Counted from the first letter of the stretch, positions 2,312 through 58,803 are shown. The stretch is DNA of 64,000 nucleotides from an uncultured Gammaproteobacteria bacterium (GCA_964645605.1 CAZYCE010000006.1:2981-66980); one strand, 5' to 3'. Numbers and translations: made by a program. The notes: generated by a model not told the origin, from the letters alone.

Positions 2312-3388
2312 ATGCAGGACAAAAACCATCAGTTAGATGTAAAGCAGCAGGTTAATGAACTCCTGGCGCGTCTTAATAAGCTTGTCGAGGTGGTAAAAAT
2401 TGCCGATAAAAAGGACAAAATCAAAAATCTTGAGGAGAAAGTAGCTGACCCAAATCTTTGGAATGATCCTCAATATGCCAGAGCCGTAACTCAGGAATTG
2501 TCTGATTTGAAAAAAGAAGTTGAAGAAATCGAGGACCTTTCGGGAACCTTGGAGGTTTTGAAAGAGATACCGGACGAATCGGAAACCAGAAAAGCGGAAA
2601 AGAATCTCATACGGCTTGAGTTAATGTCATATCTTTCGGGGGATTATGATGACAAAAATGCCTTAGTTTCAATTCATGCGGGGCAGGGCGGAACTGAGGC
2701 CATGGATTGGGTGGGGATGCTTTACCGTATGTACCTTCGCTTTTGCGAAAGGAAAAATTGGACAACAGAGACCATTGACTACACTGCGGGCGAGGAAGCC
2801 GGAATTAAAAGCGTTACCTTTACGGTAACGGGTCGCCATGCTTATGGATATTTAAAGGGGGAGGCGGGTACGCACCGCTTAGTGCGGCAATCACCTTTCA
2901 ACGCGGACAAGCTAAGACAAACCTCTTTTGCTCTCGTTGAAGTCATGCCTGAACTTGAAGACACCGATCTTAAAGACATTGAGATTAAAAGTGATGACCT
3001 GGATTGGCAATTTATTCACGCCGGTGGGCACGGCGGCCAGAATGTCAATAAAGTTGCCACGGCAGTGCGTCTTACCCATATTCCCACAGGTATTGTTATA
3101 ACGGCTTCAACCGAGCGTTTTCAGGAACAAAATAGAAAAATTGCACTTAATCTTCTTCGCGGCAAGCTTTGGATTAGACAGCAGGAAATTGCCAAAGGGT
3201 TGAAAAAAGAAATAAAGGGGGATTACAGACCGGCCTCGTGGGGCACCCAGATTCGATCTTATGTTCTTCACCCCTATAAAATGGTTAAAGATTTAAGAAC
3301 CGAGGTTGAGACGGGAAATACGGATGCGGTTTTGGATGGTGAGATAGAAGAATTTATAGATGCCGAGCTTAAGCTCGGCAAAAATTAA
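2312..3388 (+). CDS. prfB: Peptide chain release factor 2
   Basis: GGQ motif (HAGGHGGQNVNKV), SPF tripeptide (RQSPFNA) specific to RF2; single uninterrupted ORF with no programmed frameshift site. Confidence 0.9.
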   Translation: MQDKNHQLDVKQQVNELLARLNKLVEVVKIADKKDKIKNLEEKVADPNLWNDPQYARAVTQELSDLKKEVEEIEDLSGTLEVLKEIPDESETRKAEKNLIRLELMSYLSGDYDDKNALVSIHAGQGGTEAMDWVGMLYRMYLRFCERKNWTTETIDYTAGEEAGIKSVTFTVTGRHAYGYLKGEAGTHRLVRQSPFNADKLRQTSFALVEVMPELEDTDLKDIEIKSDDLDWQFIHAGGHGGQNVNKVATAVRLTHIPTGIVITASTERFQEQNRKIALNLLRGKLWIRQQEIAKGLKKEIKGDYRPASWGTQIRSYVLHPYKMVKDLRTEVETGNTDAVLDGEIEEFIDAELKLGKN

Positions 3389-3426
3389 GGTTGCGTTATT
3401 AGTTTTTAAAGTGGTATATTGTGGGT

Positions 3427-3837
3427 ATGCAACCTACGCGTAAAAGTGCTTTACCATTAGTGATCGGTGCGTTTCTGGTTGTTTTGGCAGGAGTTGTCGC
3501 TGCCTGGTTAATTTCATCCAAACTGCTTAACGGCGGGACAAATGAAAAGGCGGCTCCCGGGGTTAAAGTTACTTCGACGGAGGCAGGGTCGCTTGATCCG
3601 AATGTCAGATACGATACGGCAACAGGCGTTTTGGAAGAAGGAGGCATTGGAGGGGAAGGGACGTTTCACCTTGCACGCAATGGCGGCAGTACCGCAAAAG
3701 ATGTTGCCCTTACTTCAAGTACTGTAGATCTGGGTTCGTTTTTGGGTAAGACCGTAAATATTTGGGGGGAAACAATTTCTTCAACAAGACCGGGCGGCTG
3801 GCTTATGGATGTAGCTAAGATTCAAATAGCAGAATAA
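3427..3837 (+). CDS. Hypothetical small secreted/membrane-anchored protein
   Basis: N-terminal hydrophobic helix followed by a Gly/Thr-rich domain; start could be GTG 3421 or ATG 3427. Confidence 0.4.
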   Translation: MQPTRKSALPLVIGAFLVVLAGVVAAWLISSKLLNGGTNEKAAPGVKVTSTEAGSLDPNVRYDTATGVLEEGGIGGEGTFHLARNGGSTAKDVALTSSTVDLGSFLGKTVNIWGETISSTRPGGWLMDVAKIQIAE

Positions 3838-3892: not shown

Positions 3893-4612
3893 ATGTCCGA
3901 CGAAGAATCCACATTGATAAGTTTTAAGAATGTGAGTAAATCTTATGGTTCCATTGTTGCTCTTAAAGACATCTCATTTGAAATAAAAAAGGGGGAATTT
4001 GTGTTTATAACTGGCTCATCAGGCGCCGGAAAAACCACAATTTTGAAATTGATTTTGGGTGAGATTATTCCCTCCAAGGGTGAGGTCAGAGTAGACAATC
4101 TGAATATTGTCGATTTAAATGATAAAAACATACCTTCGTATCGGCAAAAAATAGGTGTAATTTTTCAGGATTTTAAAGTCCTTCCCGACCGGACCGTTTT
4201 TGAGAATGTTGCGGTTGCGTTGGCGGTGATAGGGCTGCCCGAAGGCCAATGGGAAGAAAGAGTTAAGCATGTCCTTAAGCTTGTCGGACTAAATCGCCAA
4301 ATTAATTTTTTCCCGTCACAACTTTCAGGCGGGGAGCTCCAGCGGGTCTCGCTTGCAAGGGCGCTTGCGGTTAATCCAAAAATTATTCTGGCGGATGAGC
4401 CGACCGGAAATCTCGATTGGGATACATCGGATGTTTTGATGAAACTTCTTGAAAAGGTTAATGAAGAAGGAAAAACCATAATCATGGCCACCCACAATAT
4501 AGAGATCGTCAATAAGTATAAAAAAAGAGTAATTCATATAGATCGCGACGATGACGGGAAAGATCGGCCCGAAAGTGAAAATGATAGAATAAAAGAGACA
4601 AAAGAGAAATGA
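3893..4612 (+). CDS. ftsE: Cell-division ABC transporter ATP-binding protein FtsE
   Basis: Walker A GSSGAGKTT, ABC signature LSGGELQRVSLARAL, Walker B ILADEPTGNLD; ATGA overlap with the downstream permease gene. Confidence 0.9.
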   Translation: MSDEESTLISFKNVSKSYGSIVALKDISFEIKKGEFVFITGSSGAGKTTILKLILGEIIPSKGEVRVDNLNIVDLNDKNIPSYRQKIGVIFQDFKVLPDRTVFENVAVALAVIGLPEGQWEERVKHVLKLVGLNRQINFFPSQLSGGELQRVSLARALAVNPKIILADEPTGNLDWDTSDVLMKLLEKVNEEGKTIIMATHNIEIVNKYKKRVIHIDRDDDGKDRPESENDRIKETKEK

Positions 4613-5523
4613 ATAATCATTTTAAAACTGCCTGGAGCTATATAAGAAGATCGCCTTTTCAAGCGCTCGCCGCCTCCTTTGTTTTAACTCTAACTTTTTT
4701 TGTAGCGACGGTTGTTTCCGTGCTTGTTTATTCATCTTCCCAGCTCCTCTCTTATTTCGAAACAAGACCGCAGATAATTGCTTTTCTAAAAAGCGATGCC
4801 ACGGAAACGGACATTGCGAGTTTGCAACACAAGCTTGAGGCAAACCCGCGCATAAAAGATGTCGTGTATGTCAGCAAAGAAGAAGCTCTTTCCATCTATA
4901 AAAAAGCAACAAGCGACAATCCCCATTTGGGGGAGCTCGTAAGTCCTTCGATATTTCCTGCATCTTTGGAATTTTCCGTTACGGATTTGTCTTTTGCCCA
5001 AAGCACAATTGACGAAATAAAAGGAGAAGGTGTTGTTGAGTCGGTCGGATTCACGGCGGCGCTTGGAGGGGAGTCAAGCTTAAATGATGTCATAGGACGT
5101 CTGAAAACGATCACCTCTTATGTAAGAATCGGAGGCACCGTCTTTGTCGGACTTTTGGCAGTTACTTCGCTGGTGATCCTTCTGGTTATTACGAGTATGC
5201 GTGTGGTGGGTAGACGCGACGAAGTTGAAATCCTGAACCTGATTGGTGCATCAAAAGGATTTATCAGAAGTCCGCTGGTAATCGAGGCGTTCATTTATAC
5301 TCTTTCGGGGGTACTTCTCGGGTGGGCGATTTCATTTATAGCGGTACTTTATTTATCGCCGTCGGTTGTTACCTATTTCGGGGAAATTCCTATTTTACCC
5401 AGAGATGCAGTTGGGCTTTTCAAACTCTTTGGAATAATTTTGGGAACGGAACTCTTGGCGGGCTCTATACTTGCCCTTTCGGGGAGCCTCATAGCCGTTT
5501 CCAGGGTTAAAAAGGTACGCTAA
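4609..5523 (+). CDS. ftsX: Cell-division permease-like protein FtsX
   Basis: N-terminal TM, large extracytoplasmic domain, three C-terminal TM helices; translationally coupled to ftsE. Confidence 0.8.
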   Translation: MNNHFKTAWSYIRRSPFQALAASFVLTLTFFVATVVSVLVYSSSQLLSYFETRPQIIAFLKSDATETDIASLQHKLEANPRIKDVVYVSKEEALSIYKKATSDNPHLGELVSPSIFPASLEFSVTDLSFAQSTIDEIKGEGVVESVGFTAALGGESSLNDVIGRLKTITSYVRIGGTVFVGLLAVTSLVILLVITSMRVVGRRDEVEILNLIGASKGFIRSPLVIEAFIYTLSGVLLGWAISFIAVLYLSPSVVTYFGEIPILPRDAVGLFKLFGIILGTELLAGSILALSGSLIAVSRVKKVR

Positions 5524-5561
5524 GATTTTACCTTGTTTTGAGATTAGGAAAATGTTACACA

Positions 5562-6725
5562 ATGAAATATGTTATTAATAAAATCTTTTTACTTCTTGGC
5601 ATTCCCCTGCTTCTTTTTGTTTCGGTAAAAAATGTATCAGCTCAGACGTGTGGCAGTTTGGATGAGTGTAATGCTCTAATTTCACAGTATCAAGATCAAA
5701 TAACAAAGCTGCAAGGACAGTCCAATACTCTTAAGAACCAAATTGCTCAATTTGATGCACAAATTAAGCTTACTACTATAAAAATTGCTCAAACCCAAGA
5801 GCAAATAAACATGCTTGGAGGAAGAATCAATCAGCTTGGAGATTCACTTGTATCCCTAACCAAGGCTTTCAATTCCAGGGCGGTGGAGACTTATAAAATT
5901 TCAAAATATGAGGGTGGTTTTTTCTTTATACTTTCCGCAAACGACATGGGAGATGCTTTTTCCAGATATCATTATCTTCAAAAAATTCAAGAAGAAGACA
6001 GAAATTTACTGACAAGGCTTCAAGAAGCCCAAACAATCTATCAAGGTCAAAAAGCCGACCAGGAGGCTTTGCAAAAACAATTAAAAACCCAACAGGCAAG
6101 TTTGAATGCGCAAAAAACTGCAAAAAATAATTTGCTTGTGGCCACAAAAAACGATGAAACAAAATATCAGCAACTTCTGAGGCAGGCTAAAGCTCAACTC
6201 TCAGCTTTTCAAAACTTCGTTACCCGGCAGGGTGGGGCATCGATTCTTAGCAATCAAACAAAATGCAACGACTGGGGTTGTTATTATAATCAAAGGGATG
6301 AACAGTGGGGCAATATCGGAATGGGGGGATCTTCCTATACAATGGCAAATTACGGCTGTTTGGTAACATCTGTTTCAATGCTTGCCAGTCATTACGGAAA
6401 GAATTTCAAACCGGGTGATGTTGCTGTTTCCGGTGATGCTTTTGTGCCGGGGACCGGTTATCTTTACCACTCATTTACCGTAAACGGGGTTTCGGTTTCG
6501 ATTTCTACGGCCTCAAAAAGTATTCTTGATTCGGAGCTTTCCGCGGGCAGGCCGGTTATCGCAGGACTTTACGGGGGACCCGATCATTTTATCGTGATTC
6601 TCCGCAAAGACGGGGATAAATACATAATGAACGATCCATTTTTGGAAAACGGATCCGAAAGACCCCTTACGGATGAATATAATGTATCCGACATCTCCAG
6701 TTTGCGTTTGGTAAGCTTTAATTAA
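5562..6725 (+). CDS. Secreted coiled-coil peptidoglycan hydrolase, PcsB/EnvC-like, with a C-terminal Cys/His (CHAP or C39-like) peptidase domain
   Basis: Signal peptide MKYVINKIFLLLGIPLLLFVSVKNVSAQ; long Q/K/L-rich heptad region (about 5640-6250); C-terminal NYGCLVTSVSMLASHYG (Cys codon 6357-6359) and DHFIVIL (His codon 6585-6587); sits immediately downstream of ftsEX. Confidence 0.6.
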   Translation: MKYVINKIFLLLGIPLLLFVSVKNVSAQTCGSLDECNALISQYQDQITKLQGQSNTLKNQIAQFDAQIKLTTIKIAQTQEQINMLGGRINQLGDSLVSLTKAFNSRAVETYKISKYEGGFFFILSANDMGDAFSRYHYLQKIQEEDRNLLTRLQEAQTIYQGQKADQEALQKQLKTQQASLNAQKTAKNNLLVATKNDETKYQQLLRQAKAQLSAFQNFVTRQGGASILSNQTKCNDWGCYYNQRDEQWGNIGMGGSSYTMANYGCLVTSVSMLASHYGKNFKPGDVAVSGDAFVPGTGYLYHSFTVNGVSVSISTASKSILDSELSAGRPVIAGLYGGPDHFIVILRKDGDKYIMNDPFLENGSERPLTDEYNVSDISSLRLVSFN

Positions 6726-6871
6726 GACGGTTTTTTAAAAAGCCGATATCCCGTATCATATAACATATTCGATAAGACATTTATAGTTATTATAGGGTTA
6801 CGTTAAAAAAGTACTGAATTAGTATGGGAAAAATCATATATTTTGGTGTTTTGGTGGATTGGGCTTTATAG

Positions 6872-10451: not shown

Positions 10452-12374
10452 ATGAAGCTACTTGTTACAGGTGCTGCGGGTTTCATTGGCTCTAACTTTG
10501 TTTACTACTGGCTGGGAAAATATCCCAACGACGAGATAAGAGTAATCGACTCCCTAACTTACGCGGGAAATTTGGAAAATCTTACCCCAATAATTAAAAA
10601 AATTAAGTTTTTTGAGGCGGATATTAATGACCGTCCAAAAGTAAGGGAAGCCATGCGGGGGGTTGACGCAGTTGTTCATTATGCAGCAGAGAGCCATGTG
10701 GATAGAAGTATTTTTGACCCCAGCCGTTATTGGGAGACAAACGTTCATGGCACCCTGACGCTTCTTGAGGAGGCTCAGAAGCTGGGGATTGAAAGATTCC
10801 ACCATATTTCTACGGATGAAGTCTATGGAGAGCTCCCTTTGGACTCAAAGGATAAGTTCAGTGAAAAAACTCCCTATGCACCCCGCCCGGACAATCTTTA
10901 CGCTCTTTCCAAAGCCGAAGCCGATAATGTTGTTAAAGATTTTTATAAAAAGACCGGAATGTTTATAACGATATCCAACTGTTCAAATAATTATGGCCCT
11001 TTTCAATTTCCGGAAAAATTTATTCCGATTGTAATTACAAATCTGATCGACGGAATAAAAGTGCCTATTCATGGTGACGGAAAAAATGTGAGGGATTGGA
11101 TCCACACACGTGACCATGCCTCGGCAGTTGATTTAATTTTACAAAAAGGAAAAAAAGGAGAAACTTATTTAGTAGGTTCAAGTAACGACAGAGACAATGA
11201 TTATATAGCCAAAAAGATAGTTAGCCTTTACGGAAAAGATGAAAGCGTTATAAGGTATGTGCCGGATCGTCACAGTAACGATAGACGCTACGCCATTGAT
11301 GCCACAAAAATTATTAAAGAGCTTGGTTGGAAACCGCAAATCGGCAGGGATAATTTTGACGAGGGTTTAAAAGAGACAATAAAGTGGTACAAGGAGAATC
11401 AAGGTTGGTGGAGGCCGCTTCTCAAAAGACGAGCTTCAATTACCGATGATGAAAAGACAATAAGTGCATTTATTTCACTTGATCGCGAGACCGGAAAAAC
11501 AAAGTTTGTTTTTGGAAAACTTGAGGAGCAAACGAGGACGACGCTGCCTAAAAGCAATCTAAGCAAACATTTCATCGAGCAAAATTCAGTCCGCTATGAA
11601 ATTGTCATGAGAAATCTCAAATCCAAGAAATGGTACCGGAAAAGCCCGCATAAAATTAAAAGGGAAATAGAAACTCTTGCCGTAAATCCCGGCACATTCG
11701 GCTATGTGGAGGATCTGTCTCTGAGGGACGACAAGGTGAATGGTGACACGCTTCTGAAACTCGCAAAAATTGAACACGGTGAACCCAGGTATGGTATTTA
11801 CGGTATAGCGTCCTGGTTTGAGGTTGAAAATGAAAAAGGTGAAAAAAGAATGGAAGGTTACTATTCTTGGGGATGGGGACCTAAATCAGGTGCTAAACTT
11901 TTGGTTTTGCTAAAAAGACACGGAGAAATTACCCACATTGCTTTTCAAAAAGAAGTAAGGTTTCCGATGGGGTCAGAAGCTTACAACCTTGCCGGAGGAT
12001 TTCCTAAACTGAATGAAAGCGTGCTCAACTTTATAGTAAGGTCTCTGAAAAAAGATCTGAATTTAGACAGTAAAGACGGAGATTTTACACTGAGTGAAAT
12101 AGTAAGTTTGGGTAGGGTTGTTCCCGATTCAGGCATGACGAATAATCACCCGAATCTATATGCCGTTATTTTGGAAACGGATGATAAAAAGTTTTTAAAA
12201 GCCACTCCCGGCAAGAAATTTGAGAACCATGATATTGTCCTTTGGCCGATTAGCGAAATTTCTGAGGTGGTCAATAAGTGTGACGACTCATATTTTCTTT
12301 CGGCAATGGCCAGACTGACCCTTTCGGGAATTTATACAATGAATCTTTCGGAGAACAACAAGAAGAATGACTGA
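10452..12374 (+). CDS. rfbB: dTDP-glucose 4,6-dehydratase (RmlB) fused to an uncharacterised ~300-aa C-terminal domain
   Basis: First ~330 aa: GAAGFIGSNF, YALSKAEAD (YxxxK), HISTDEVYG. Residues ~330-640 (11442-12374) have no dehydratase similarity and carry a degenerate Nudix-like box GX5EX7R (11994-12059). Confidence 0.8.
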   Translation: MKLLVTGAAGFIGSNFVYYWLGKYPNDEIRVIDSLTYAGNLENLTPIIKKIKFFEADINDRPKVREAMRGVDAVVHYAAESHVDRSIFDPSRYWETNVHGTLTLLEEAQKLGIERFHHISTDEVYGELPLDSKDKFSEKTPYAPRPDNLYALSKAEADNVVKDFYKKTGMFITISNCSNNYGPFQFPEKFIPIVITNLIDGIKVPIHGDGKNVRDWIHTRDHASAVDLILQKGKKGETYLVGSSNDRDNDYIAKKIVSLYGKDESVIRYVPDRHSNDRRYAIDATKIIKELGWKPQIGRDNFDEGLKETIKWYKENQGWWRPLLKRRASITDDEKTISAFISLDRETGKTKFVFGKLEEQTRTTLPKSNLSKHFIEQNSVRYEIVMRNLKSKKWYRKSPHKIKREIETLAVNPGTFGYVEDLSLRDDKVNGDTLLKLAKIEHGEPRYGIYGIASWFEVENEKGEKRMEGYYSWGWGPKSGAKLLVLLKRHGEITHIAFQKEVRFPMGSEAYNLAGGFPKLNESVLNFIVRSLKKDLNLDSKDGDFTLSEIVSLGRVVPDSGMTNNHPNLYAVILETDDKKFLKATPGKKFENHDIVLWPISEISEVVNKCDDSYFLSAMARLTLSGIYTMNLSENNKKND

Positions 12375-14480: not shown

Positions 14481-14513
14481 GACCCTTGTATTTTAGCAAC
14501 GGATTGAGATAAA

Positions 14514-15665
14514 GTGAACTATATGGATAAAGTTGTAATAATCATGCCCACTTGGAACGAGCTGGAAAATATTAAGGAAATGGTCCAGGTTCTTACGGAA
14601 GAGGAATTTCCCAAAATTAACGCCGATATGGAGCTTCTGGTGGTCGACAATCATTCTACAGACGGTACCGCCGAGGTGGTCGAGGCAGCCGCGAGTACTC
14701 ACAAAAATGTTCACATAGTCCAACAACTAAACAACGGACTTGGCTGGGCATATGTTACCGGTATGCGCTACGCAATGGAAAAACTTAATGCAGATGCCGT
14801 GATGGAAATGGATGCGGATTTTCAACACCCTCCGCGTTTTGTCAAACCCATGGTTGAAGCTTATCTGAATGGAGCGGATTATGTTATCGGTAGCCGTTAT
14901 ATTAAAGGCGGTTCGGTTCCGAAGGATTGGGCAATCAGCAGGAAAGCAGTAAGCTTTTTCGGAAATATGTTTATCCGTATTTGCCTTTTGAATTTTAAAA
15001 TTCACGATCTGACCACAGGTTTCAGACTTACTAAAGTTCATGGAGTGCTGGATAAAATTGAACTCGAAAAACTTCACAACCTTGACAGATTTTCCCATAA
15101 AGTTGACCTTCTTTATCAGTCGCTTAAAAATTCCACAAAAACCGTGGAAGTGCCGTTGGAATTTGCCTCCAGGACTAAAGAGAAATCTAAATTTAATTGG
15201 AAGGAAATGATTGCCACTTTTAAATTGGCGATTGTCTTGGGAATAAAGGATAAAGAACGTTTTATTAAGTTTGGCACGGTTGGGTTTATTGGTTATCTGG
15301 TTAATGCGATTTTCCTTAAAATTCTGACTGTAGCAGGTAGCCCCGGCATTATTGCTTGGTCACTCCCGGTGGAATTGTCGATAATCAGCAATTTTATTTT
15401 GAACAATATTTGGACTTTTAAGAAGGAAAAAATTAAAGGAGTAAAGGCGATCGGTTTAAAGTTTTTGCAGTTTAACGGTACTTCATTAGGAGCTCTTTTG
15501 ATTCAGACTGTTGCCGGAAGCGCTGGCGATATTTTATTCGGGGTTGGTGCCAGGCAAATTCTCTTACCGTTCATAATAGTATTTTTGGTTTTGCCTTATA
15601 ATTATTTTATGTATAATGCTGTTATTTGGAAAACGTGGAAGTTGCCTTGGGCAAAGAAGTCTTAG
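14514..15665 (+). CDS. Polyprenyl-phosphate sugar synthase (DPM1/GtrB-like GT2) fused to a GtrA-like flippase domain
   Basis: N-terminal GT2: IIMPTWNELENI, VVDNHSTDGT, EMDADFQHPP. C-terminal four-TM domain with GtrA signature FIKFGTVGFIGYLVNAIFLKIL...ISNFILNNIWTFK. Confidence 0.75.
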   Translation: MNYMDKVVIIMPTWNELENIKEMVQVLTEEEFPKINADMELLVVDNHSTDGTAEVVEAAASTHKNVHIVQQLNNGLGWAYVTGMRYAMEKLNADAVMEMDADFQHPPRFVKPMVEAYLNGADYVIGSRYIKGGSVPKDWAISRKAVSFFGNMFIRICLLNFKIHDLTTGFRLTKVHGVLDKIELEKLHNLDRFSHKVDLLYQSLKNSTKTVEVPLEFASRTKEKSKFNWKEMIATFKLAIVLGIKDKERFIKFGTVGFIGYLVNAIFLKILTVAGSPGIIAWSLPVELSIISNFILNNIWTFKKEKIKGVKAIGLKFLQFNGTSLGALLIQTVAGSAGDILFGVGARQILLPFIIVFLVLPYNYFMYNAVIWKTWKLPWAKKS

Positions 15666-17173: not shown

Positions 17174-17884
17174 GTGGACACTCTTATCAAAGAATTATCC
17201 GTTTTTCTGCCTACATACAACGAGGAAGGTAACATAGCAGGAGTAATTGAAAATGTCGTCAAGGCTGCTTCTCAAAATGCCGAAAAATGGGAATTAATAG
17301 TGGTAGATGACGGTTCTATCGATTCAACGGCAGAAATTGTTTCAAAATTTGTAGAGTCAGACAGCCGCATTAAAATAATTAAGCACAAGAAAAATTCCGG
17401 TTATGGAGCGTCTCTCAAAACAGGGTTATACAATTCGAAATATAATTGGATTTCATTTATAGATTCCGACGGCCAGTTTGATTTCGGCGAAATAAATAAA
17501 TTTATTCAAAAGCAAAAGGAAACGGGAGCGGATATCGTCATTGGTTACTACAAAAAAAGAAAGGCGTCATCCTTAAAAATAATCACCAGTAAAATTTGGG
17601 AAGCCCTGGTGTTCATCCTTTTCGGTCTTAAAGTACGGGATATTGATTGTGGATTTAAACTTATTTCCAAAAGGGTGATTGAAAAAATTCCCAAACTGGA
17701 AAGTGAAAGAGGGGCGTTTATCAGCAGTGAACTATTGGTTAAGGCAAAAAAGAACGGATTCAAAATAGTGGAGATTCCCGTTACTCATTACCCGCGGTTA
17801 AAAGGAGAAGGGACGGGAAGAAAATTAAATGTGATTGTCGAAAGCTTCATAGATCTTTTCAGGCTGTGGAAAAAATTGCGATGA
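17174..17884 (+). CDS. GT2 polyprenyl-phosphate glycosyltransferase (DPM1/GtrB-like)
   Basis: LSVFLPTYNEEGNI, VVDDGSIDST, FIDSDGQFD. Confidence 0.8.
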   Translation: MDTLIKELSVFLPTYNEEGNIAGVIENVVKAASQNAEKWELIVVDDGSIDSTAEIVSKFVESDSRIKIIKHKKNSGYGASLKTGLYNSKYNWISFIDSDGQFDFGEINKFIQKQKETGADIVIGYYKKRKASSLKIITSKIWEALVFILFGLKVRDIDCGFKLISKRVIEKIPKLESERGAFISSELLVKAKKNGFKIVEIPVTHYPRLKGEGTGRKLNVIVESFIDLFRLWKKLR

Positions 17885-19437
17885 GGATTAGAAATTTTAT
17901 ATTTGGCATCAAAAATTGGATCAAAAAAAACCCTGTTGAATTTTGGATGCTTTTAGCGATCTTAATAATCGGGGCATTTTGCCGTCTTTACAAAATTGAC
18001 CAATACATGACTTTTTTAGGAGATGAGGGCCGTGACGTGATTATCGTCCGAAGAATTTTTACTGAGGCCCATCCGCCCTTAATAGGTCCGGGGACATCGG
18101 TTGGGAGTATGTATTTAGGTCCCCTTTATTACTACATGATGGCAATTCCGCTTTTATTAGCCGGTTTTTCGCCCGTGGGGCCGGCCGTGATGGTTGCTCT
18201 TTTGGGGGTTGCTACAATTGGTTTTGTCTGGTGGGTGGGTAGGATTTGGTTTTCCAAAACCGCCGGTCTGATTGCGGCGGGACTTTATGCGATTTCTCCG
18301 ACCGTTATAACTTTTTCCCGCTCTTCATGGAACCCGGACGTAATGCCTTTTTTTGCACTTTTGTTAACTTATTCTATATGGAAAGTTTGGAGGAAAGGCG
18401 AATTTAATTGGTTAATTGTTATGGGGATTTCTTTTGCCTTTGTGCTCCAATCACACTACTTGGGGCTTCTTTTGGCCCCAACGCTTTTTATATTTTGGTT
18501 TTTAACATGGAGAAATCTTAAATCGATTGGAAACTCAAAATCAAAAATTAGAAATTTCATTAAAAAATCACTCTTGGGTTTAGGATTTTTCCTACTGTTA
18601 ATGAGCCCTCTCCTAATTTTTGATTTAAGGCACGACTTTTTAAACTCAAAAGCTATTTATCAATTTATTGTTAACCGTGATGTGGCCCTTTCCGGAAGCC
18701 TTTTTGTGGCATTTTCCAAAATTCCCAAAGTATTTAATTTAATAAATTCAAGTTTACTTGCAGGAAAAAATACCCTGGCGGCGGTTGCCTCTTCAGTCTT
18801 TATCGTTTCCGGGGTGGTTTACGTTTTTGCCGAAAGTTTTGTCAAAAAGAAAAATTTTAAAATTAAGCCGGAGTATTGGCTTCTTTTTTCCTGGCTTTTC
18901 TTTGGTCTGATTGGCCTTAGTCTTTATAAAATGGAAATCTATGACCATTATTTTGGTTTCCTTTTCCCTGTGCCCTTTATTATTTTCGGATCGTTTATGG
19001 CTAAATTAATTGAAGACGGAAAAATTGCTAAGGTATTGGGTACGGCGGCGATACTTTATTTGGTAGTTATGGGCCTGATTCAGAATCCATTCAGATATGC
19101 TCCAAACCGCCAGCTGCAAAGGTCGCAAGATGTGGCTAAAAAAATATTAAGCCTATCCGCTGACAATTCTTTTAATTTGGCCGTTATTGCCGAAAGGAAC
19201 TACGAAGACGGTTATCGATATTTTCTTGAACTTTGGGGAGGAAAGGTTCTTCATGCCGATAGGTGGGATCCCGCAACCATTTCTGACCAACTTTTTGTTG
19301 TTTGCGAAAATGAACCTTCAAAATGTGATCCGACACACTCCCCGAAAGCGGAAGTTGCAAACTTCGGCATGAGTAAAATTGACGGGCAATGGGAGGTGGA
19401 TGGGGTTATAATATATAAACTTGCTCACGCACAATGA
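17866..19437 (+). CDS. GT-C-fold membrane glycosyltransferase (ArnT/PMT-like), subfamily B
   Basis: First extracytoplasmic loop FLGDEGRDVIIVRRIF...LIGPGTSVGSMYLGPLYYY; about 11 TM; overlaps upstream GT2 by 19 bp. Confidence 0.65.
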   Translation: MEKIAMRIRNFIFGIKNWIKKNPVEFWMLLAILIIGAFCRLYKIDQYMTFLGDEGRDVIIVRRIFTEAHPPLIGPGTSVGSMYLGPLYYYMMAIPLLLAGFSPVGPAVMVALLGVATIGFVWWVGRIWFSKTAGLIAAGLYAISPTVITFSRSSWNPDVMPFFALLLTYSIWKVWRKGEFNWLIVMGISFAFVLQSHYLGLLLAPTLFIFWFLTWRNLKSIGNSKSKIRNFIKKSLLGLGFFLLLMSPLLIFDLRHDFLNSKAIYQFIVNRDVALSGSLFVAFSKIPKVFNLINSSLLAGKNTLAAVASSVFIVSGVVYVFAESFVKKKNFKIKPEYWLLFSWLFFGLIGLSLYKMEIYDHYFGFLFPVPFIIFGSFMAKLIEDGKIAKVLGTAAILYLVVMGLIQNPFRYAPNRQLQRSQDVAKKILSLSADNSFNLAVIAERNYEDGYRYFLELWGGKVLHADRWDPATISDQLFVVCENEPSKCDPTHSPKAEVANFGMSKIDGQWEVDGVIIYKLAHAQ

Positions 19438-20417
19438 ACTACAAAAAATCAGCCGAAATACTTTCAGAGATTAAAACATCTAACGATATTTTAATTAATT
19501 GTCACAGAGGACCGGACTCAGACTCGGTAGGCTCCGCCCTGGCTTTATCGCAAGCTTTGAAAAGTTTAGGGAAAGAAGCCACGGTAATTTGCCCCAGCGA
19601 CATTCCTCCGGATCTGGCTTTTTTAAAGGGTGCTAACGAAATCGTACGGGTTAATTTTACATCCTTTGATTTTTCAGCTTACGATCTGTTTTTGATTCTT
19701 GATTCCTCGACATACTCGATGGTTACGGGTTTAAAAGATTCGGACAGACCCAACATAAAATCAGTTGTAATTGACCATCATCCTTCAAAGGAAAAGTTCG
19801 GGGATATAAACTTGATTGATCCTGCTATGACGTCCACAGGTGAACTTCTTTATAGAATATTGGACGATTGGGGAGTTTCTCTTACTAAAGATATATCCGA
19901 GTGTCTGTTGACGGGAATAATCGGAGATACGGGAACCTTCCAATATCAAAATGTGGGAGAGGCCACTTTGAGGATTGCCGCGGAGTTAATGGAAAAAGGT
20001 GCCGACAAAGACAAAATTGTTTACAACCTTTATAGAAATATCGATTTCAAAGAATTAAAAATGTGGGGTAAATTTATTGAAAGTATGAAAATCGAGGACG
20101 GTTTTGTCTGGTCGGCGCTGCCGCTTTCGACATACAAAGACTTTGGAGAATATTCTTATGCGAAAGAAGATGTTGCAAATTTATTTTTTCCGATTGTTAA
20201 AGGAACGGAATTTGGAATTGTAATGGTTGAAACGTCAGAAAACGTTTTGTCTGTAAGTTTTAGATCCAGAAACGGATTTGATGTTTCAAAGATTGCGAAC
20301 GAAATCGGAGGAGGAGGGCATAAAGCCGCCTCCGGTGCCAGGATAGAGGGGGTTCCTTTTCAAGAGGCTGTAAATCGTGTTCTTGCTGCGGCCGGAAAGC
20401 ATGTTAAAAAAGATTAA
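19434..20417 (+). CDS. DHH/DHHA1 phosphoesterase (NrnA-like nanoRNase/pAp phosphatase)
   Basis: DHH motifs (CHRGPDSDSVGS, VIDHHPS) and DHHA1 GGGGHKAASGA. Confidence 0.8.
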   Translation: MNYKKSAEILSEIKTSNDILINCHRGPDSDSVGSALALSQALKSLGKEATVICPSDIPPDLAFLKGANEIVRVNFTSFDFSAYDLFLILDSSTYSMVTGLKDSDRPNIKSVVIDHHPSKEKFGDINLIDPAMTSTGELLYRILDDWGVSLTKDISECLLTGIIGDTGTFQYQNVGEATLRIAAELMEKGADKDKIVYNLYRNIDFKELKMWGKFIESMKIEDGFVWSALPLSTYKDFGEYSYAKEDVANLFFPIVKGTEFGIVMVETSENVLSVSFRSRNGFDVSKIANEIGGGGHKAASGARIEGVPFQEAVNRVLAAAGKHVKKD

Positions 20418-21894
20418 AGGCGCTCAAATATATAATTTTCTTCTGGTTTTGGTCTTAGGGGTTGCGGCGTTCTTAAGATTTTTCCGTTTGTCCGATTTGC
20501 TTGGTTTTTGGTACGATCAGGGAAGGGACGCGCTGGTCATTTGGGACATGGTTTACCAAGGTAAGTTTACCTTGATTGGACCCATGATGGGATTTACGGG
20601 AATTTTCAGAGGGGCTTGGTACTACTGGATGATTGCTCCCTTTTATTGGTTAGGACACGGCAATCCAATTTATCCCTCGGTATTTTTGATATTGACTTCT
20701 ATTGTTGCAATTCTCCTTCTTTATAAGTTGGGTCATGAAATGGAGGGTTCAAAGACGGGACTCTTGGCGGCTTTTATCGCCTCTGTCTCAGGATATATTA
20801 TTGGAGCTTCACGTTGGTTGTCGGATCCGACACCAACGCTTTTGGTAAGTGTTGTCTTGGTTTGGTCACTTTTTAAATTTTCTAAAGGTAGCCGTTGGGC
20901 GCTGCCTCTTTCGGGATTTTTGGCCGGAATGGCACTTCAATTTAGTGCCGCAACGGAAATATTTTACGTTCCTGCAATTATTCTGATAGTTTTCCTTTTC
21001 AGAAAAAAGCTGAAAATCAGATTGACCAATTTGCTGCTGACGGGGGCGGCTTTTGTTATCCCTTTTGTGCCACAGCTACTTTTCGAGGTACGTCATCCCG
21101 GTGTTCAAAGCAGTGCCCTTTTGAATTTTCTTTTCCATGAAAAAACATTTACATATGCGTTTTGGGAAATAATCAAAACCAGAATTCCTTTTGATTACAA
21201 TATGATTGCTTCCAAGTTTTGGATAAACGGAGGTATGTTTTTTGCTCCGTTTTTTGGCATTTTTCTGGTTCTTTTAATTTTAAATTGGAAAAAACTTTGG
21301 CAGTCGGACAAATTTAAAATTATTTTTATTTTGGCTCTTGCCCCGCTTATCGGGACGTTGTTCTTTGTCAGCAATTTGGGAGGAGTATACGAGTATTATT
21401 TTACAGGCTATTATTTGATTTGGATTCTTCTTTTCTCGTATGTTTATATGACTGCCTTCAAAAGCAAATTAGTGAAAGTTACTTTAGCGGTATTTATGGC
21501 TTTCCTTTTGTTTTTCAATATAAAAGACTTTAGGGAATCTTATTTTAAACCTCTATCCGATCCGAAAATTATAGCTTTTAAAAACCAAATTTCGGCGGTT
21601 GATTGGGTCTACGAAAATGCCTCGGAAAGGCCCTTCAATGTTGATGAATATGTTCCTCCGGTCATTCCCTATGCCTATCAATATTTATTTTTGTGGAGAG
21701 GCGAAACCGTGCATAAAACTCAGCCTCTTACCAAAAACGTAGACTTACTTTATACTCTATATGAGGTGGATCCAAATCACCCCGAAAGGTTGCAGGCTTG
21801 GCTGGATAGACAAAAGGGCATCGGCAAGGTTTTAAAGGAAGAAACCTTCGGGGGGATAACAGTTCAGGAGAGAGAAAGAATAACTAAAAAATGA
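20401..21894 (+). CDS. GT-C-fold membrane glycosyltransferase, subfamily B
   Basis: FWYDQGRDALVIWDMV...LIGPMMGFTGIFRGAWYYW, a paralog of the 17866 and 28073 products; internal ATG 20401 chosen. Confidence 0.65.
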   Translation: MLKKIKGAQIYNFLLVLVLGVAAFLRFFRLSDLLGFWYDQGRDALVIWDMVYQGKFTLIGPMMGFTGIFRGAWYYWMIAPFYWLGHGNPIYPSVFLILTSIVAILLLYKLGHEMEGSKTGLLAAFIASVSGYIIGASRWLSDPTPTLLVSVVLVWSLFKFSKGSRWALPLSGFLAGMALQFSAATEIFYVPAIILIVFLFRKKLKIRLTNLLLTGAAFVIPFVPQLLFEVRHPGVQSSALLNFLFHEKTFTYAFWEIIKTRIPFDYNMIASKFWINGGMFFAPFFGIFLVLLILNWKKLWQSDKFKIIFILALAPLIGTLFFVSNLGGVYEYYFTGYYLIWILLFSYVYMTAFKSKLVKVTLAVFMAFLLFFNIKDFRESYFKPLSDPKIIAFKNQISAVDWVYENASERPFNVDEYVPPVIPYAYQYLFLWRGETVHKTQPLTKNVDLLYTLYEVDPNHPERLQAWLDRQKGIGKVLKEETFGGITVQERERITKK

Positions 21895-29572: not shown

Positions 29573-31138
29573 ATGAGAAAATTCTTTAAAAATAATTGGC
29601 TCTATCTTTTGGGTGTGGGGATGGTGTTGCTTCTTTTTTCCCTCCGTTTCTACCACCTGACAATTCTACCAATCTTTGCGGATGAAGCAATCTATATCCG
29701 TTGGGCACAGGTGATGAGGGCGGAGGAAACTCTTAGATTTCTTCCCCTTTCCGACGGGAAAGAACCTCTTTTTATGTGGGCTGTCATACCCTTTTTAAAA
29801 ATATTTTCCGACCCTCTTGTTGCCGGAAGAGTAGTTTCAGTGCTGTCGGGTCTTGCAACAATGATCGGAACAAGTTTTCTTTCTTATCTTCTTTTTAAAA
29901 ACAAAAAAGTCGCTTTAATGGCAGCTTTAATCTACGCGGTTTCGCCGTTTACTTTTTTCTTTGACAGAATGGCACTTGTGGATTCAATGCTTACAATGTT
30001 TGGCGTCTGGACTTTTATATTTTCTTTTCTTGCCGTTAGAAACAAAAGGTTTGATTTTGCTATGTTGGCGGGTTTTTCCCTTGGCGGCGCGTGGTTAACT
30101 AAATCATCGGCATTGTTTTTTGCCTTAATGCTTCCGGTGTTTTTGTTGGTGGCTCCATGGAAAAGGAAAACAAAGGAAAATTTTCCAATATTGGTTAAAT
30201 CAATCGGCTTGCTTTTGGCAACGGCAGTAATCGGATACGGATTTTTTAATATTCTAAGACTTGGGCCGAACTTTCATCTCATATCATCCCGCAATATGGA
30301 TTATGTTTATCCGATAAGCCATATATTTACCAGTCCGTTTGACCCTTTCAGGGTATTTATAGAGGCTTCGGCAAGATGGATATCTGCAATGGGGCCGTGG
30401 CCGTTATATTTATTGGCAGTTGCCGGTATTTTGGTGAATTTTAAAAAGAGGTGGAAAGAGATCGTAATTGTTGCGATTTGGTTGTTATTGCCCATAATTG
30501 TAAATTCTGAATTCGCAAAGTCTTTTACGGCAAGATATATTTTATATAACGTCCCATACCTAATGGTTTTGGCAGCTTCTGTTTTTACAGCAAAACTCAG
30601 TAGAATCAAAAGTATTTTATTGTATTTAGTTTTAGCGGTTTTTGTATTTCTATCTATTCGATTCGATTATTATCTACTGTTTAATCCCTACAAAGCCGAT
30701 CTTCCAAGAAGTGAAAGATCCGGGTATCTTGAGGAGTGGACTGCGGGACAAGGAATTGCCGAAACCGCCAAATACCTGATAGAAGAGCAGGCCGCCTCGC
30801 CGAATGAAAAGATTGTTGTTGGCACTGAAGGTTATTTCGGAACACTTCCCGATGGTCTTCAAATTTACCTTCAAAAATATCCCCAAATTACGGCAATCGG
30901 GGTAGGTCTAAGGTTCGATAATATACCGTCTCCTCTCATGGGTTCCAAGGCCTACGGAGACAAAACCTATCTTCTGGTCAATGCATCAAGATTCAGCGGC
31001 AATGCCCAATATTTAGGGTTAAAGCTTGTTAAAGAGTTTCCGAAAGCCGAAAAACCAAACGGTACTCATGACTCCCTGCTTTTATTTGAGGTGACAAATG
31101 AAGCGCTTAAAGTTAAGGCCAATTTTACGGACCTGTAA
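29573..31138 (+). CDS. GT-C-fold membrane glycosyltransferase (ArnT/PMT-like)
   Basis: PIFADEAIYIRWAQVM...LPLSDGKEPLFMW first-loop motif; about 12 TM with a C-terminal soluble domain. Confidence 0.65.
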   Translation: MRKFFKNNWLYLLGVGMVLLLFSLRFYHLTILPIFADEAIYIRWAQVMRAEETLRFLPLSDGKEPLFMWAVIPFLKIFSDPLVAGRVVSVLSGLATMIGTSFLSYLLFKNKKVALMAALIYAVSPFTFFFDRMALVDSMLTMFGVWTFIFSFLAVRNKRFDFAMLAGFSLGGAWLTKSSALFFALMLPVFLLVAPWKRKTKENFPILVKSIGLLLATAVIGYGFFNILRLGPNFHLISSRNMDYVYPISHIFTSPFDPFRVFIEASARWISAMGPWPLYLLAVAGILVNFKKRWKEIVIVAIWLLLPIIVNSEFAKSFTARYILYNVPYLMVLAASVFTAKLSRIKSILLYLVLAVFVFLSIRFDYYLLFNPYKADLPRSERSGYLEEWTAGQGIAETAKYLIEEQAASPNEKIVVGTEGYFGTLPDGLQIYLQKYPQITAIGVGLRFDNIPSPLMGSKAYGDKTYLLVNASRFSGNAQYLGLKLVKEFPKAEKPNGTHDSLLLFEVTNEALKVKANFTDL

Positions 31139-32535: not shown

Positions 32536-34032
32536 ATGAATGAAGAAGATGGCGTAGCGCCTTCGGATCCCACTACGGAAATCCCTCTTGAAACCGTGAA
32601 GAAGCGTTCCGTACGGGGGGTAGTCGTTCTTACGGGCAGGACATTCTTACTTCAGGTTATTAGCCTTGTTGCCCAGTTATTTCTTTTTGCCTATCTTAAT
32701 AAATACGAATTCGGCGTCTTTGCGATAGTCAGTGCAATTATTAACTTTTTGGTTTATTTCTCCGATATCGGTCTGGCCGCGGCGTTAATTCAGAAAAAGG
32801 AAAAACCCACGGATACGGATTTAAAAACTACTTTTCTTGTTCAACAACTTCTGGTTTTGATAATAATCGCGGTTGTTTTTCTCTTAAGCCCGTTTCTCGC
32901 TCAAAAATTTTCACTCGACCATGATGGACAAATACTTTTGTATGCACTTGCCGTGTCACTCCTTTTCTCCTCGTTAAAAGGCATTCCGTCGGTCCTTTTG
33001 GAGCGCAAGCTTGAGTTTGTGAAATTGGCTTTTCCTCAAATTCTGGAACAGGTTGTCTATAACGTTGTCTTGGTTTATCTTGCCATGAAAGGCTTCGGGC
33101 TTAAAAGTTTTACTTTTGCCGTTCTTATCCGTGGAATTGTCGGGCTTGTAACTATTTACATTCTTCAACCCTGGAAGCCGGGCATCGCGTTTTCCGGAAA
33201 AACCTTGAAAGGTCTTTTTAAATTTGGCATTCCCTACCAAATCAATACTTTTCTGGCTACTTTTAAGGATGACGGAATGACGCTTGTTCTGGGAAGTATT
33301 TTGGGGCCGGTTGGGGTAGGTGTTCTTTCATTCGCCCAAAAAATAGCCAGATTCCCATTGACATTTTTTATGGACACGGTGACCCGGGTAACATTCCCGG
33401 CTTTCTCCCGGATGCAGGACGCGAAGGACGACCTTGAAAGAAGTGTCACAAGATCAATATTTTTCATTTGCCTTTTAGTGTTCCCGAGCTTAGCCGGTAT
33501 TTCAATATTGGCTCCGATCTTGGTGCGCGTTATACCAAGATATAATCAATGGGTGCCGGCCCTTGTTCCGATCGTTTTTGTTTCGATTAATTTTGCTTTC
33601 GCCGCGGCCACAACACAACTTACGAACCTCCTTAATGCTATCGGGAAAATCAAGATTACTTTCTATTTAATGATCATGTGGACGGTACTGACCTGGGCTT
33701 TTGTTCCGTTTTTGGCTATTAAATTTAATGTGACGGGTGCGGCGATAGGATATTCACTGGTCGGAGCCTCCTCACTTGTCGCAATATTTGTGGCCAAAAG
33801 ATACGTCAACTTTTCAATTACCGATTCGGTGATAAAACCTTTAGTGGGAACAATCGTCATGAGTGTGGCGCTTATTGTAGCGCGTAGGTTTTTACCTGTA
33901 ACCCTCACCTCCTTGGAAATATTGGTGGCAATAGGAGCAGCTATTTATGTTACCTCAATGATTTCTATGGTGGGCGTCAGTCTTATTGAAGATGCTAAAA
34001 AAAGCTTCAAAACAATTTTTACGAAGAAGTAA
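32536..34032 (+). CDS. wzx: Wzx-type polysaccharide/O-unit flippase (MOP superfamily)
   Basis: About 14 TM, N-terminal region LQVISLVAQLFLFAYLNKYEFGVFAIVSAIINFLVYFSDIGLAAALIQ typical of polysaccharide biosynthesis protein family. Confidence 0.7.
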   Translation: MNEEDGVAPSDPTTEIPLETVKKRSVRGVVVLTGRTFLLQVISLVAQLFLFAYLNKYEFGVFAIVSAIINFLVYFSDIGLAAALIQKKEKPTDTDLKTTFLVQQLLVLIIIAVVFLLSPFLAQKFSLDHDGQILLYALAVSLLFSSLKGIPSVLLERKLEFVKLAFPQILEQVVYNVVLVYLAMKGFGLKSFTFAVLIRGIVGLVTIYILQPWKPGIAFSGKTLKGLFKFGIPYQINTFLATFKDDGMTLVLGSILGPVGVGVLSFAQKIARFPLTFFMDTVTRVTFPAFSRMQDAKDDLERSVTRSIFFICLLVFPSLAGISILAPILVRVIPRYNQWVPALVPIVFVSINFAFAAATTQLTNLLNAIGKIKITFYLMIMWTVLTWAFVPFLAIKFNVTGAAIGYSLVGASSLVAIFVAKRYVNFSITDSVIKPLVGTIVMSVALIVARRFLPVTLTSLEILVAIGAAIYVTSMISMVGVSLIEDAKKSFKTIFTKK

Positions 34033-47403: not shown

Positions 47404-48482
47404 TGTTCCTTTATCTCGTAGGTGCTACCTAGATACTTTTCAAGTCTGAGTGATTCTCTGGTTTTTACATCGATAGATATAACTGCAATTTGGAAAATTA
47501 CGAAAATGATAGTGATGGCTAAAAATATTCTACCGATTATATTCCCCTTTAGATTTAGTAGGCTGAAAATTCCCTGCGAAATTACAAAAATTATTATTGG
47601 GAAGAAAAGAATAAGGCGGTTTAACGACACAATATCTTTTGCAAGGATCGATGGAATTGTCAATATAGTAGAGATTAATAAAATTTTTCTTGTACGTGAA
47701 TTTTGGAGTAGTTTATACAGTCCGTAGGCAAAAGGGATTATGAAACCCAAAATTATCGGTGGACTAAATGAAAATCCTAAAAGCTTGTATTGCGGGGTAA
47801 AAAAAGCCACGGGCATCAGCTGAGAAATATATTTTAAGACAAAGTACTCGCTAAAAAATAGATATTTATTCTCGGAAAGTCTAGCCAGATTTTTATATCC
47901 TTTTTCAGCGGCAGCACCCTGGTAACGGTTTACAGTATTAAGAAGACCGGGATCGGAAAAAATTTGTATCTCGTTACTCAAACTGTTTCTAAATCCGGTT
48001 ACATTTCTAATGGTAAATAGAAAAAGCGGAATTAATAGTACAGTAGTAATCAGTAAAGAAGTTTTCAAGTCTTTTTTGGGCACTATCTTAAATAAAATTA
48101 ACGCTGAAAATATAAGGGGAACAATCAATAAAAAGTTTATGGAGCTGTAAATCCCAATTATCAAACCGGAAATCAAAGTAATGTTCCCCAAAATTCTATT
48201 TTTTCCCCGAACGAGCAAAAGCCCATGGATGGTCAGCAGTGTCGGGAAGAGTAGAAAAACATAAAATGAATGGGCAAGTGTTAAGTAATAAACCCATGGG
48301 GAAAGAAGGTAAATTAAAATCGGAATAAATCGAGTTTTGCCTTTCAAAAAGTGTCCCGCTATAAGCCAGATTATAAGGGCGTTAATTATAAAAATTGGGA
48401 TGTAAAATTGATCCGGAATTGTTACTGTTGTGCGTAGTACATCGGCAAAAAATAAATTTTTCACTGTATAATGAAGAGGCAT
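47400..48482 (-). CDS. Polytopic membrane protein, shorter family-A-related paralog lacking the N-terminal DE loop
   Basis: C-terminal half resembles family A (KYLFFSEYFVLKYISQLMP compared with NYLSHFTPDFLF); start set to the internal ATG because the 5' end overlaps a divergent gene. Confidence 0.4.
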   Translation of the reverse strand: MPLHYTVKNLFFADVLRTTVTIPDQFYIPIFIINALIIWLIAGHFLKGKTRFIPILIYLLSPWVYYLTLAHSFYVFLLFPTLLTIHGLLLVRGKNRILGNITLISGLIIGIYSSINFLLIVPLIFSALILFKIVPKKDLKTSLLITTVLLIPLFLFTIRNVTGFRNSLSNEIQIFSDPGLLNTVNRYQGAAAEKGYKNLARLSENKYLFFSEYFVLKYISQLMPVAFFTPQYKLLGFSFSPPIILGFIIPFAYGLYKLLQNSRTRKILLISTILTIPSILAKDIVSLNRLILFFPIIIFVISQGIFSLLNLKGNIIGRIFLAITIIFVIFQIAVISIDVKTRESLRLEKYLGSTYEIKEQ

Positions 48483-48484
48483 AT

Positions 48485-58802: not shown

Positions 58803-58803
58803 A

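Follow-up and report, generated by a model that had tools for sequence, protein, structure and literature searches.

What kind of enzyme is encoded directly behind ftsE and ftsX in the 64,000-nucleotide stretch of DNA analyzed here (hereafter the window), and is it likely to be controlled by the FtsEX complex? Hydrolysis of the wall under FtsEX control is both conserved and essential in bacterial growth and division, and an initial annotation, made from the sequence alone, had read positions 3893 to 6725 of the window as a complete divisome-coupled module of FtsEX and a secreted hydrolase resembling PcsB. The analysis reported here confirmed the observation itself and supported the reading of these genes as FtsEX followed by a coiled-coil hydrolase. 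Overall, based on analogy with characterized systems, we consider it likely that they make up a cassette, in a Microgenomates-group bacterium, for an extracellular cell-wall hydrolase under FtsEX control, in which a peptidoglycan peptidase would be gated by FtsEX. The window was assigned to the Microgenomates group within the candidate phyla radiation (CPR, or Patescibacteria), and its closest relatives carry the label Woesebacteria. Many contigs whose gene content is typical of CPR and whose proteins are CPR-like (L004, L006, L010, and others) are titled “uncultured Gammaproteobacteria bacterium” or “uncultured Pseudomonadales bacterium”, which look like placeholder or wrong labels.

The cassette consists of four closely packed plus-strand genes between 3.4 and 6.7 kb: a small open reading frame (ORF), ftsE (3893..4612), ftsX (4609..5523), and a 387-codon gene (5562..6725) encoding a secreted protein with a coiled coil and a C39-like cysteine peptidase domain, hereafter the hydrolase. 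As initially annotated, ftsE and ftsX are ATGA-coupled through an overlap at 4609–4612, and the ATG of the hydrolase gene at 5562 follows the ftsX stop codon (TAA, 5521–5523) after a gap of 38 nt. The length first given for the secreted protein, 388 residues, had to be revised to 387 (plus stop) from the ORF, this start codon, and a public gene call (P0001, 387 residues, 100% identical). Scanning one genome per GTDB species yielded 319 genomes with a relative, and the best 80 loci all came from Microgenomates-group CPR. Upstream sequence of 2.1 kb or more was available for 68 loci, and ftsE-ftsX was found immediately 5′ of the hydrolase gene and on the same strand in 65, at hydrolase identities of 37–82%. 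One of the exceptions (L083) has a membrane glycosyltransferase gene interposed between ftsX and the hydrolase gene. The typical order across loci was prfB, small ORF, ftsE, ftsX, and hydrolase. Because ftsE-ftsX lies upstream in 65 of 68 related loci, the adjacency of ftsEX and the hydrolase gene is not due to chance: throughout the group the three genes have remained neighbors, and the downstream placement of the partner, to which the initial annotation had pointed, is a kept feature of these loci. Promoter and terminator scans scored no better than shuffled sequences and did not delimit an operon.

Both subunits of FtsEX, a type VII ATP-binding cassette (ABC) system that regulates cell-wall hydrolases, could be identified. 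The 239-residue FtsE, an ABC ATPase, scored 277.4 bits against the NCBIfam FtsE equivalog model TIGR02673 (cut-off 264.85), matched Pfam ABC_tran (E=5e-37), and retained all expected motifs, i.e., Walker A GSSGAGKT (41), the Q-loop, LSGGE (144), Walker B IILADEP (164), and the H-loop ATH (199). It also carries a charged C-terminal tail (DRDDDGKDRPESENDRIKETKEK; residues ~218–239, window 4544–4609), which is missing in several relatives (FtsE of 216–217 residues), while others have tails of differing length (234–264 residues). For the 304-residue FtsX, the permease-like subunit, Pfam FtsX_ECD (57.2 bits, profile positions 2–96 of 96, residues 55–146) and FtsX (42.5 bits) both matched above their cut-offs, and phmmer retrieved the FtsX chains of the solved FtsEX complexes 8i6o, 8hd0, and 8idb. 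Hydrophobic segments at residues ~17–46, 171–202, 223–258, and 267–300, with a loop of ~125 residues between segments 1 and 2, indicate that FtsX has four predicted membrane segments, the first two of which enclose a large extracellular domain. This domain (residues ~47–170, 4747..5118) is delineated by the FtsX_ECD match and by an alignment with FtsX of Escherichia coli and Pseudomonas aeruginosa that spans the stretch from membrane segment 1 to membrane segment 2, and, by analogy with the EnvC-FtsX structure (PMC11627006), it is the presumed docking site of the coiled coil of the hydrolase.

The hydrolase begins with a predicted signal peptide (residues 1–27, 5562..5642), recognized as a hydrophobic segment, with predicted cleavage between KNVSA and QT and no lipobox in its sequence. 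Residues 28–224 are rich in glutamine (15.7%), leucine (11.2%), alanine (9.1%), and lysine (8.1%), and include no proline. A hydrophobic periodicity of 3.5 residues was reached by ~0.2% of 2000 shuffles in each of the two long helices, and did not exceed shuffled sequences in the C-terminal domain. AlphaFold2 modeled two long helices linked by a short element and, together with the heptads and the family profile, this delineates a coiled-coil hairpin (5658..6230) composed of helix 1 (residues 33–114), a short tip element (115–128), and helix 2 (129–223). The N-terminal ~200 residues had initially been described as a heptad coiled coil, and both the modeled helices and the comparison with shuffles agree with that description.

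The affiliation of this coiled coil became apparent at the level of the family. A single-sequence phmmer search of the hydrolase against PDB sequences returned chance coiled-coil matches only. A profile of the family, derived from 81 of its diverged members (31% mean identity), matched EnvC of E. coli (E=2.4e-19 and 2.3e-15, gapless, with profile positions 18–240 against residues 20–243 of EnvC 8hd0_E), Vibrio cholerae (E=3e-14), and P. aeruginosa (E=1e-7), as well as PcsB of Streptococcus pneumoniae (4cgk, E=5e-9, colinear, PcsB residues 1–230), RipA (E=4e-5), and RipC (E=5e-3). The EnvC and PcsB matches are colinear over ~220 residues, and generic coiled coils such as tropomyosin, lamin, and a phage tail needle reached only ~1e-5 to 1e-2 with the same profile; one uncharacterized “conserved membrane protein” (8qox_B) reached 1.4e-8. 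When the full-length model was searched with Foldseek, PcsB (4cgk) and then EnvC of FtsEX complexes (8tzl_E and 6tpi_A) ranked at the top, with the coiled coils of RipA and RipC (6ewy and 9hmx_A) at target-normalized template modeling scores (TM-scores) of 0.72–0.75. The N-terminal half of the hydrolase is thus an antiparallel two-helix hairpin that shares its family with the coiled coils through which EnvC and PcsB bind FtsX, and the resemblance to these two proteins that was proposed initially holds. Overall, 1580 homologues share the architecture of the hydrolase, under automatic names such as “peptidoglycan hydrolase CwlO-like protein” (JGI) and “C39 family peptidase” (NCBI).

Within the hairpin, the tip region (residues 100–157, ...SRAVETYKISKYEGGFFFILSANDMGDAFSRYHYLQKIQEED..., 5859..6032) is where a contact with FtsX would be expected. 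Pfam CC_PcsB matched these residues in the window protein at 20.5 bits, under its cut-off of 27, and matched 38 of the 81 diverged family members, with a best E of 8e-9. In the profile alignment, the family consensus for SRAVETYK…FFFILSAND…SRYHYLQKIQEED stands opposite EnvC residues ~120–158, and EnvC 114–160 is the segment that contacts the two FtsX periplasmic domains (PMC11627006). We also considered the tip as the best-conserved part of the stalk, and ruled this out: residues ~52–70 and 186–220, nearest the head, are more conserved. Outside the catalytic residues, conservation is highest in these two stalk segments and in the linker (GGASILSNQTKC..WGC). The linker, which joins the coiled coil to the head (residues 224–240, GGASILSNQTKCNDWGC, 6231..6281), is almost invariant in close relatives and reaches a mean conservation of 0.50, equal to that of the catalytic domain, in 103 diverged sequences. 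The conservation of these parts would fit a head–stalk contact of an autoinhibitory kind, and as a guess the linker could serve as a hinge or as an autoinhibitory element. Two cysteine pairs, Cys30/Cys36 at the start of helix 1 (window 5649–5669) and Cys235/Cys240 in the linker (6264–6281), are nearly invariant in close relatives and may form lineage-specific disulfides. A general role of these cysteines in stapling head and stalk together was considered and dropped, as only about one-third to one-half of the 103 representatives have them.

The C-terminal head (residues 241–387, 6282..6722) was identified as a C39-like papain-fold cysteine peptidase domain from Pfam, AlphaFold2, and Foldseek. 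Peptidase_C39_2 (PF13529) matched residues 241–359 at 31.8 bits (cut-off 24) and matched 77 of the 81 diverged members (best E=3.6e-14), while Peptidase_C39 (PF03412) scored 20.9 bits, just under its cut-off of 22. No Pfam match to CHAP, NLPC_P60, or Peptidase_M23 was obtained for the hydrolase at E≤0.1, and NLPC_P60 was not among the 25 families most often matched in the 81 members scanned. The head model (predicted local distance difference test score 84.7, predicted TM-score 0.85) retrieved the C39 domain of ComA (3k8u), PCAT1 (7n87), the pseudomurein endoisopeptidase PeiR (8z4h), and the C39-like protein 3erv, so that the head is predicted to adopt a papain-like alpha+beta fold of the C39-like type. 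Of the two families between which the initial annotation had left the choice, CHAP or C39-like, only the latter was thus retained, and Pfam and Foldseek both indicate a papain-fold peptidase, with no sign of the non-peptidase fold that had been named as grounds for refutation. A search with the head alone of 1.84 billion cluster representatives yielded 892 clusters at E≤1e-3. The architecture appears stable, since 102 of the best 150 of these clusters are 370–460 residues long, with the head at the C-terminal end in the rows listed.

Conservation within the head converges on a small set of residues. Across 103 representatives sharing at most ~50% identity and the 81-sequence alignment, the only invariant residues were Gln244, Gly265-Cys266, His342, and Asp358-Pro359. 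Four of them, each invariant in 103 of 103 representatives, can be given a predicted role: Gln244 (YYNQRD, codon 6291..6293) as oxyanion-hole glutamine, Cys266 (NYGC, 6357..6359) as nucleophile, His342 (PDHF, 6585..6587) as general base, and Asp358 (MNDPF, 6633..6635) as third triad residue. The Cys (NYGCLVTS) and His (DHFIVIL) singled out initially are therefore both present, 76 residues apart, and are predicted to belong to the Cys266-His342-Asp358 triad of a papain-like peptidase, with Gln244 at the oxyanion hole.

The most informative comparison, with sister cassettes, bears on how the two halves of the hydrolase may divide the work. Five further loci were sampled via the small upstream protein; in three of them (L089, L090, L091) the gene after ftsX encodes a coiled-coil/C39_2 protein, and in the other two the same slot holds a coiled-coil/Peptidase_M23 protein (L088:6779-7909 and L092:6208-7347). 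The other components of the latter two cassettes are clearly orthologous to those of the window, with identities of 47–50% for the small protein, 61–68% for FtsE, 61–64% for FtsX, and 53–56% for the coiled coil (E about 1e-66). Beyond about residue 217, where helix 2 ends just before the linker, similarity is lost, and the heads are unrelated. In both M23 domains the HxH motif (…STGKHLHFEV…) precedes HxxxD (…GGVHTGLD…), and the chain terminates at a point from which a canonical M23 domain would extend further; because the two motifs stand in reversed order, this domain looks circularly permuted, with its predicted catalytic residues intact. At the level of these alignments, this shows the slot after ftsX to be occupied by interchangeable putative hydrolase heads on a single docking scaffold. 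Such an exchange of C39 and M23 heads argues that the coiled coil is the module for FtsX docking and transmission and that the effector function lies in the head. Since the M23 family is a classical one of peptidoglycan endopeptidases, the exchange also speaks for the wall as the target of the C39-like head. Separately, a high-GC and apparently non-CPR locus (L084:5001-10595) encodes, in this order, a coiled-coil/C39-like protein (434 residues), an acetyltransferase-like protein, FtsE, FtsX, and a canonical coiled-coil/M23 protein (444 residues), i.e., two different coiled-coil partners on either side of one ftsEX.

If the cassette operates as FtsEX-EnvC, FtsEX-PcsB, and FtsEX-RipC do, the tip of the hydrolase hairpin would dock between the two FtsX extracellular domains, and ATP binding and hydrolysis by FtsE would shift these domains and the stalk. 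Movement of the stalk would then free the cysteine-peptidase head from an autoinhibited position, and the released head would cut peptide stems or cross-links of peptidoglycan. This scheme draws on the solved FtsEX-EnvC and FtsEX-RipC complexes and on PcsB (PMC11627006), and, on the same grounds, the most likely purpose of the cassette would be daughter-cell separation. For a physical coupling of FtsEX to the hydrolase, the analysis provides the conserved gene order and the homology of the coiled coil.

Several observations weigh against this interpretation. More distant lineages have the architecture away from ftsEX (L086). FtsX fell below the NCBIfam FtsX equivalog cut-offs (134.5 vs 255 for TIGR00439, 106.5 vs 225 for NF038347, and 72.6 vs 250 for NF038346), and based on these scores we regard it as a divergent FtsX, as expected in a CPR lineage. 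For the head, the Foldseek TM-scores are moderate (0.43–0.6), and we found no biochemically demonstrated peptidoglycan cleavage by any PF13529 member in the literature. The link between this family and the wall comes from its annotation as a phage-lysin catalytic domain, along with the resemblance of a mycobacteriophage lysin domain to a Bacillus anthracis C39-like peptidase; when the head was compared with 50,697 phage records by tblastn, no match was returned, and the search therefore provided no lysin support for it. Finally, an archaeal C39-like protein with a Q-C-H set was reported to act on galactoside analogues and not on peptides (PMC13642728).

The small ORF upstream of ftsE (3421..3837, plus strand) encodes a 138-residue membrane-anchored protein, delineated by tblastn across loci, alignment, and hydropathy. 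It is composed of a transmembrane segment (residues 7–38) followed by a conserved extracytoplasmic domain of ~90 residues, with the alignment motif EGGI.GEGTHHL...VYLTSS..DL...VWG.T...AGWLMDVG. By tblastn, 68 of 83 loci have it directly upstream of ftsE, and all loci inspected have prfB on its other side. We obtained no Pfam match and no PDB sequence match for this protein, for which at least 7995 clusters exist, every one of them unnamed or “hypothetical”. It may represent a fourth component of the cassette, as a candidate FtsEX accessory subunit. The initial description of a “complete divisome-coupled” module thus stands as far as FtsEX and the hydrolase are concerned; we infer the coupling to the divisome, and “complete” may be premature given this conserved neighbor. 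A bolder version of the proposal would combine these elements into a four-gene cassette conserved in Microgenomates-group CPR, whose catalytic head, on one orthologous docking stalk, has been exchanged between C39-like and apparently permuted M23 domains, and in which the C39 type would be a fourth, so far undescribed, class of FtsEX-gated peptidoglycan hydrolase and the small protein an obligatory cofactor comparable to SweC/SweD or SteA/SteB. We regard this combination as tentative, with the odds against it as a whole.

The alternative that survives best is a variant of the proposal, in which an FtsEX-gated wall hydrolase serves wall growth or turnover instead of septal splitting, in parallel with FtsEX-CwlO of Bacillus subtilis. 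Characterized FtsEX partners are not all division enzymes: FtsEX-CwlO reportedly acts in elongation (Meisner et al. 2013). Consistent with a role in growth, JGI names the family “CwlO-like”, and no ftsZ or ftsA was identified among the genes read beside the cassette. However, that name reflects the coiled coil alone, as NLPC_P60 is unmatched, and EnvC and PcsB, to which the coiled coil is most closely related in sequence, are both division factors. We therefore consider a growth function a credible second choice, although not a probable one.

A less probable alternative is that FtsEX positions or gates a C39-like protease whose substrate is a protein, e.g., a surface, pilus, or surface-layer (S-layer) protein, or another hydrolase that it would activate. 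Characterized C39 peptidases cut peptide leaders and not peptidoglycan, the top fold matches of the head include ComA and PCAT1, and the literature gap on wall cleavage by PF13529 noted above points the same way. On the other hand, all characterized coiled-coil partners of FtsEX act on peptidoglycan, directly or via amidases (PMC11627006), orthologous cassettes carry an M23 head, and the fold also matches a wall-cleaving pseudomurein endoisopeptidase. Moreover, a candidate gene for a double-glycine substrate is not conserved in the cassette. Taken together, these observations make a protein substrate unlikely.

The remaining alternatives fare worse. EnvC, the closest match of the coiled coil, binds FtsX and activates separate amidases through a degenerate LytM domain, and the hydrolase could by extension be a non-catalytic adaptor with its C39-like domain reduced to a binding module; yet Gln244, Cys266, His342, and Asp358 are invariant in 103 representatives, whereas degenerate adaptor domains have lost such residues (PMC11627006), and linkage to an amidase gene was not found at the loci, so that we give this model very little weight. 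Similarly, C39 domains are classically tied to ABC exporters and FtsX scores under the NCBIfam FtsX cut-offs, which could indicate a MacB-type ABC exporter with an export-associated C39 leader peptidase, or an adjacency that is simply incidental. Such readings are strongly disfavored by a synteny that persists in 65 of 68 loci at identities as low as 37%, an FtsE above its equivalog cut-off, an FtsX_ECD matched end to end, a PF03412 score below its cut-off (20.9 vs 22), and a peptidase that is secreted as a protein of its own and bears a coiled coil of the EnvC/PcsB type, instead of being an N-terminal cytoplasmic domain of a transporter. Lastly, a non-peptidase hydrolytic activity of the head, such as on glycans, is hardly probable: the archaeal Q-C-H protein showed weak beta-galactoside-analogue activity and none on peptides, but this activity was very low and on artificial substrates, and its triad has Asn at the position of the Asp (PMC13642728) that is invariant as Asp358 in the family of the hydrolase.

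The genes read beside the cassette include prfB, VanZ, a sugar epimerase, and envelope-glycan genes. Upstream, prfB (2312–3388) is a single unbroken 358-codon ORF, and thus gives no indication of the programmed +1 frameshift that is usual for this gene. Downstream, relatives have a gene of 260–294 codons between the hydrolase and VanZ (L001:6228-7043, L003:6161-6943, L088:7956-8840), with a Lamin Tail Domain match in L088 and L003; the corresponding interval of the window (6726–6871) is only 146 nt long, so that this gene is missing there. Further downstream, a 640-residue protein (10452–12374, plus strand) combines ~310 N-terminal residues of a sugar-nucleotide 4,6-dehydratase/epimerase with ~300 C-terminal residues without a Pfam match, and a 639-residue long form is also found in L001 and L002. 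Positions 14500–55600 form a large envelope-glycan region, in which at least seven ORFs of ~500–550 residues match PMT_2/PMT, i.e., GT-C type membrane glycosyltransferases (17866–19437, 20377–21894, 29573–31138, 45769–47403 on the minus strand, 48395–49969, and 51656–53170 among them), next to similar neighbors without a match. The same region encodes a GT2-GtrA fusion (14514–15665), a Polysacc_synt_3 flippase (32536–34032), and a PTPS_related membrane protein (39026–40702). On the minus strand at 57048–61179, a TraG/VirB4-like P-loop ATPase (57048–58802) and a 430-residue T4SS_pilin-domain protein (59887–61179) suggest a putative type IV secretion or conjugation-like apparatus. Neither tRNA genes nor Rfam families at the gathering threshold were detected in the 64-kb window.

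If the proposed function holds, the cassette would offer a first concrete way into the question of how the wall may be split in CPR bacteria, which are ultra-small and uncultivated. The C39 and M23 cassettes form a natural domain-swap series that separates docking and transmission from catalysis, and would be useful for testing how a mechanical signal releases different heads, and the small conserved membrane protein is a candidate cofactor open to testing. In practical terms the impact is modest, since the principle behind the design is already known. The FtsEX partners covered in a 2024 review are EnvC (degenerate LytM), PcsB (CHAP), CwlO and RipC (NlpC/P60), and RipA with SteAB, with no C39 type among them (PMC11627006), and we found neither a described C39-type FtsEX partner nor a study of an FtsEX partner in CPR in the literature. 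The cassette would thus add a C39-like head to the three described kinds, LytM, CHAP, and NlpC/P60 (PMC11627006).

The comparison with each of these systems specifies where the hydrolase stands. Like PcsB (S. pneumoniae, 4CGK), it is a secreted protein with an N-terminal coiled coil and a C-terminal Cys-His hydrolase domain of the papain superfamily. Unlike PcsB, its head is Peptidase_C39_2 instead of CHAP, its Cys-His spacing is 76 instead of 51 residues (C292 and H343; PMC11627006), its model has two long helices where PcsB has three long and two short ones (PMC11627006), and its gene directly follows ftsX; the NCBIfam model NF046104 scored 22.7 against a cut-off of 450, and covered the coiled coil alone. 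Given that CHAP is not matched, the hydrolase would work like PcsB without being a member of the PcsB family. With EnvC (E. coli and V. cholerae; 6TPI, 8HD0, 8TZL), it shares the two-helix hairpin, the short tip element, and a tip that aligns with the FtsX-contacting region. EnvC, however, has a degenerate non-catalytic LytM/M23 domain that activates AmiA and AmiB (PMC11627006), whereas the window protein has an intact predicted catalytic set, no identified equivalent of the restraining arm, a score of 13.1 for NF008644 (cut-off 270), and no Peptidase_M23 match. The overall design is also that of CwlO (B. subtilis) and of RipC and RipA (Mycobacterium and Corynebacterium), and CwlO and RipC depend on FtsEX (PMC11627006); their heads are of the NlpC/P60 type, which is unmatched in the window protein, and the latter has no proline-rich linker. 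ComA (3K8U), PCAT1, and the B. anthracis protein 3ERV provide the nearest solved folds of the head, with the same Gln/Cys/His/Asp arrangement, but ComA and PCAT1 carry it as a cytoplasmic part of an ABC exporter that cuts double-glycine leaders, whereas in the window protein the domain is predicted to be secreted on a coiled-coil stalk. Judged from its domain matches, the window protein is therefore a PF13529 member that would work like PcsB, CwlO, and RipC, and that belongs to none of those families.

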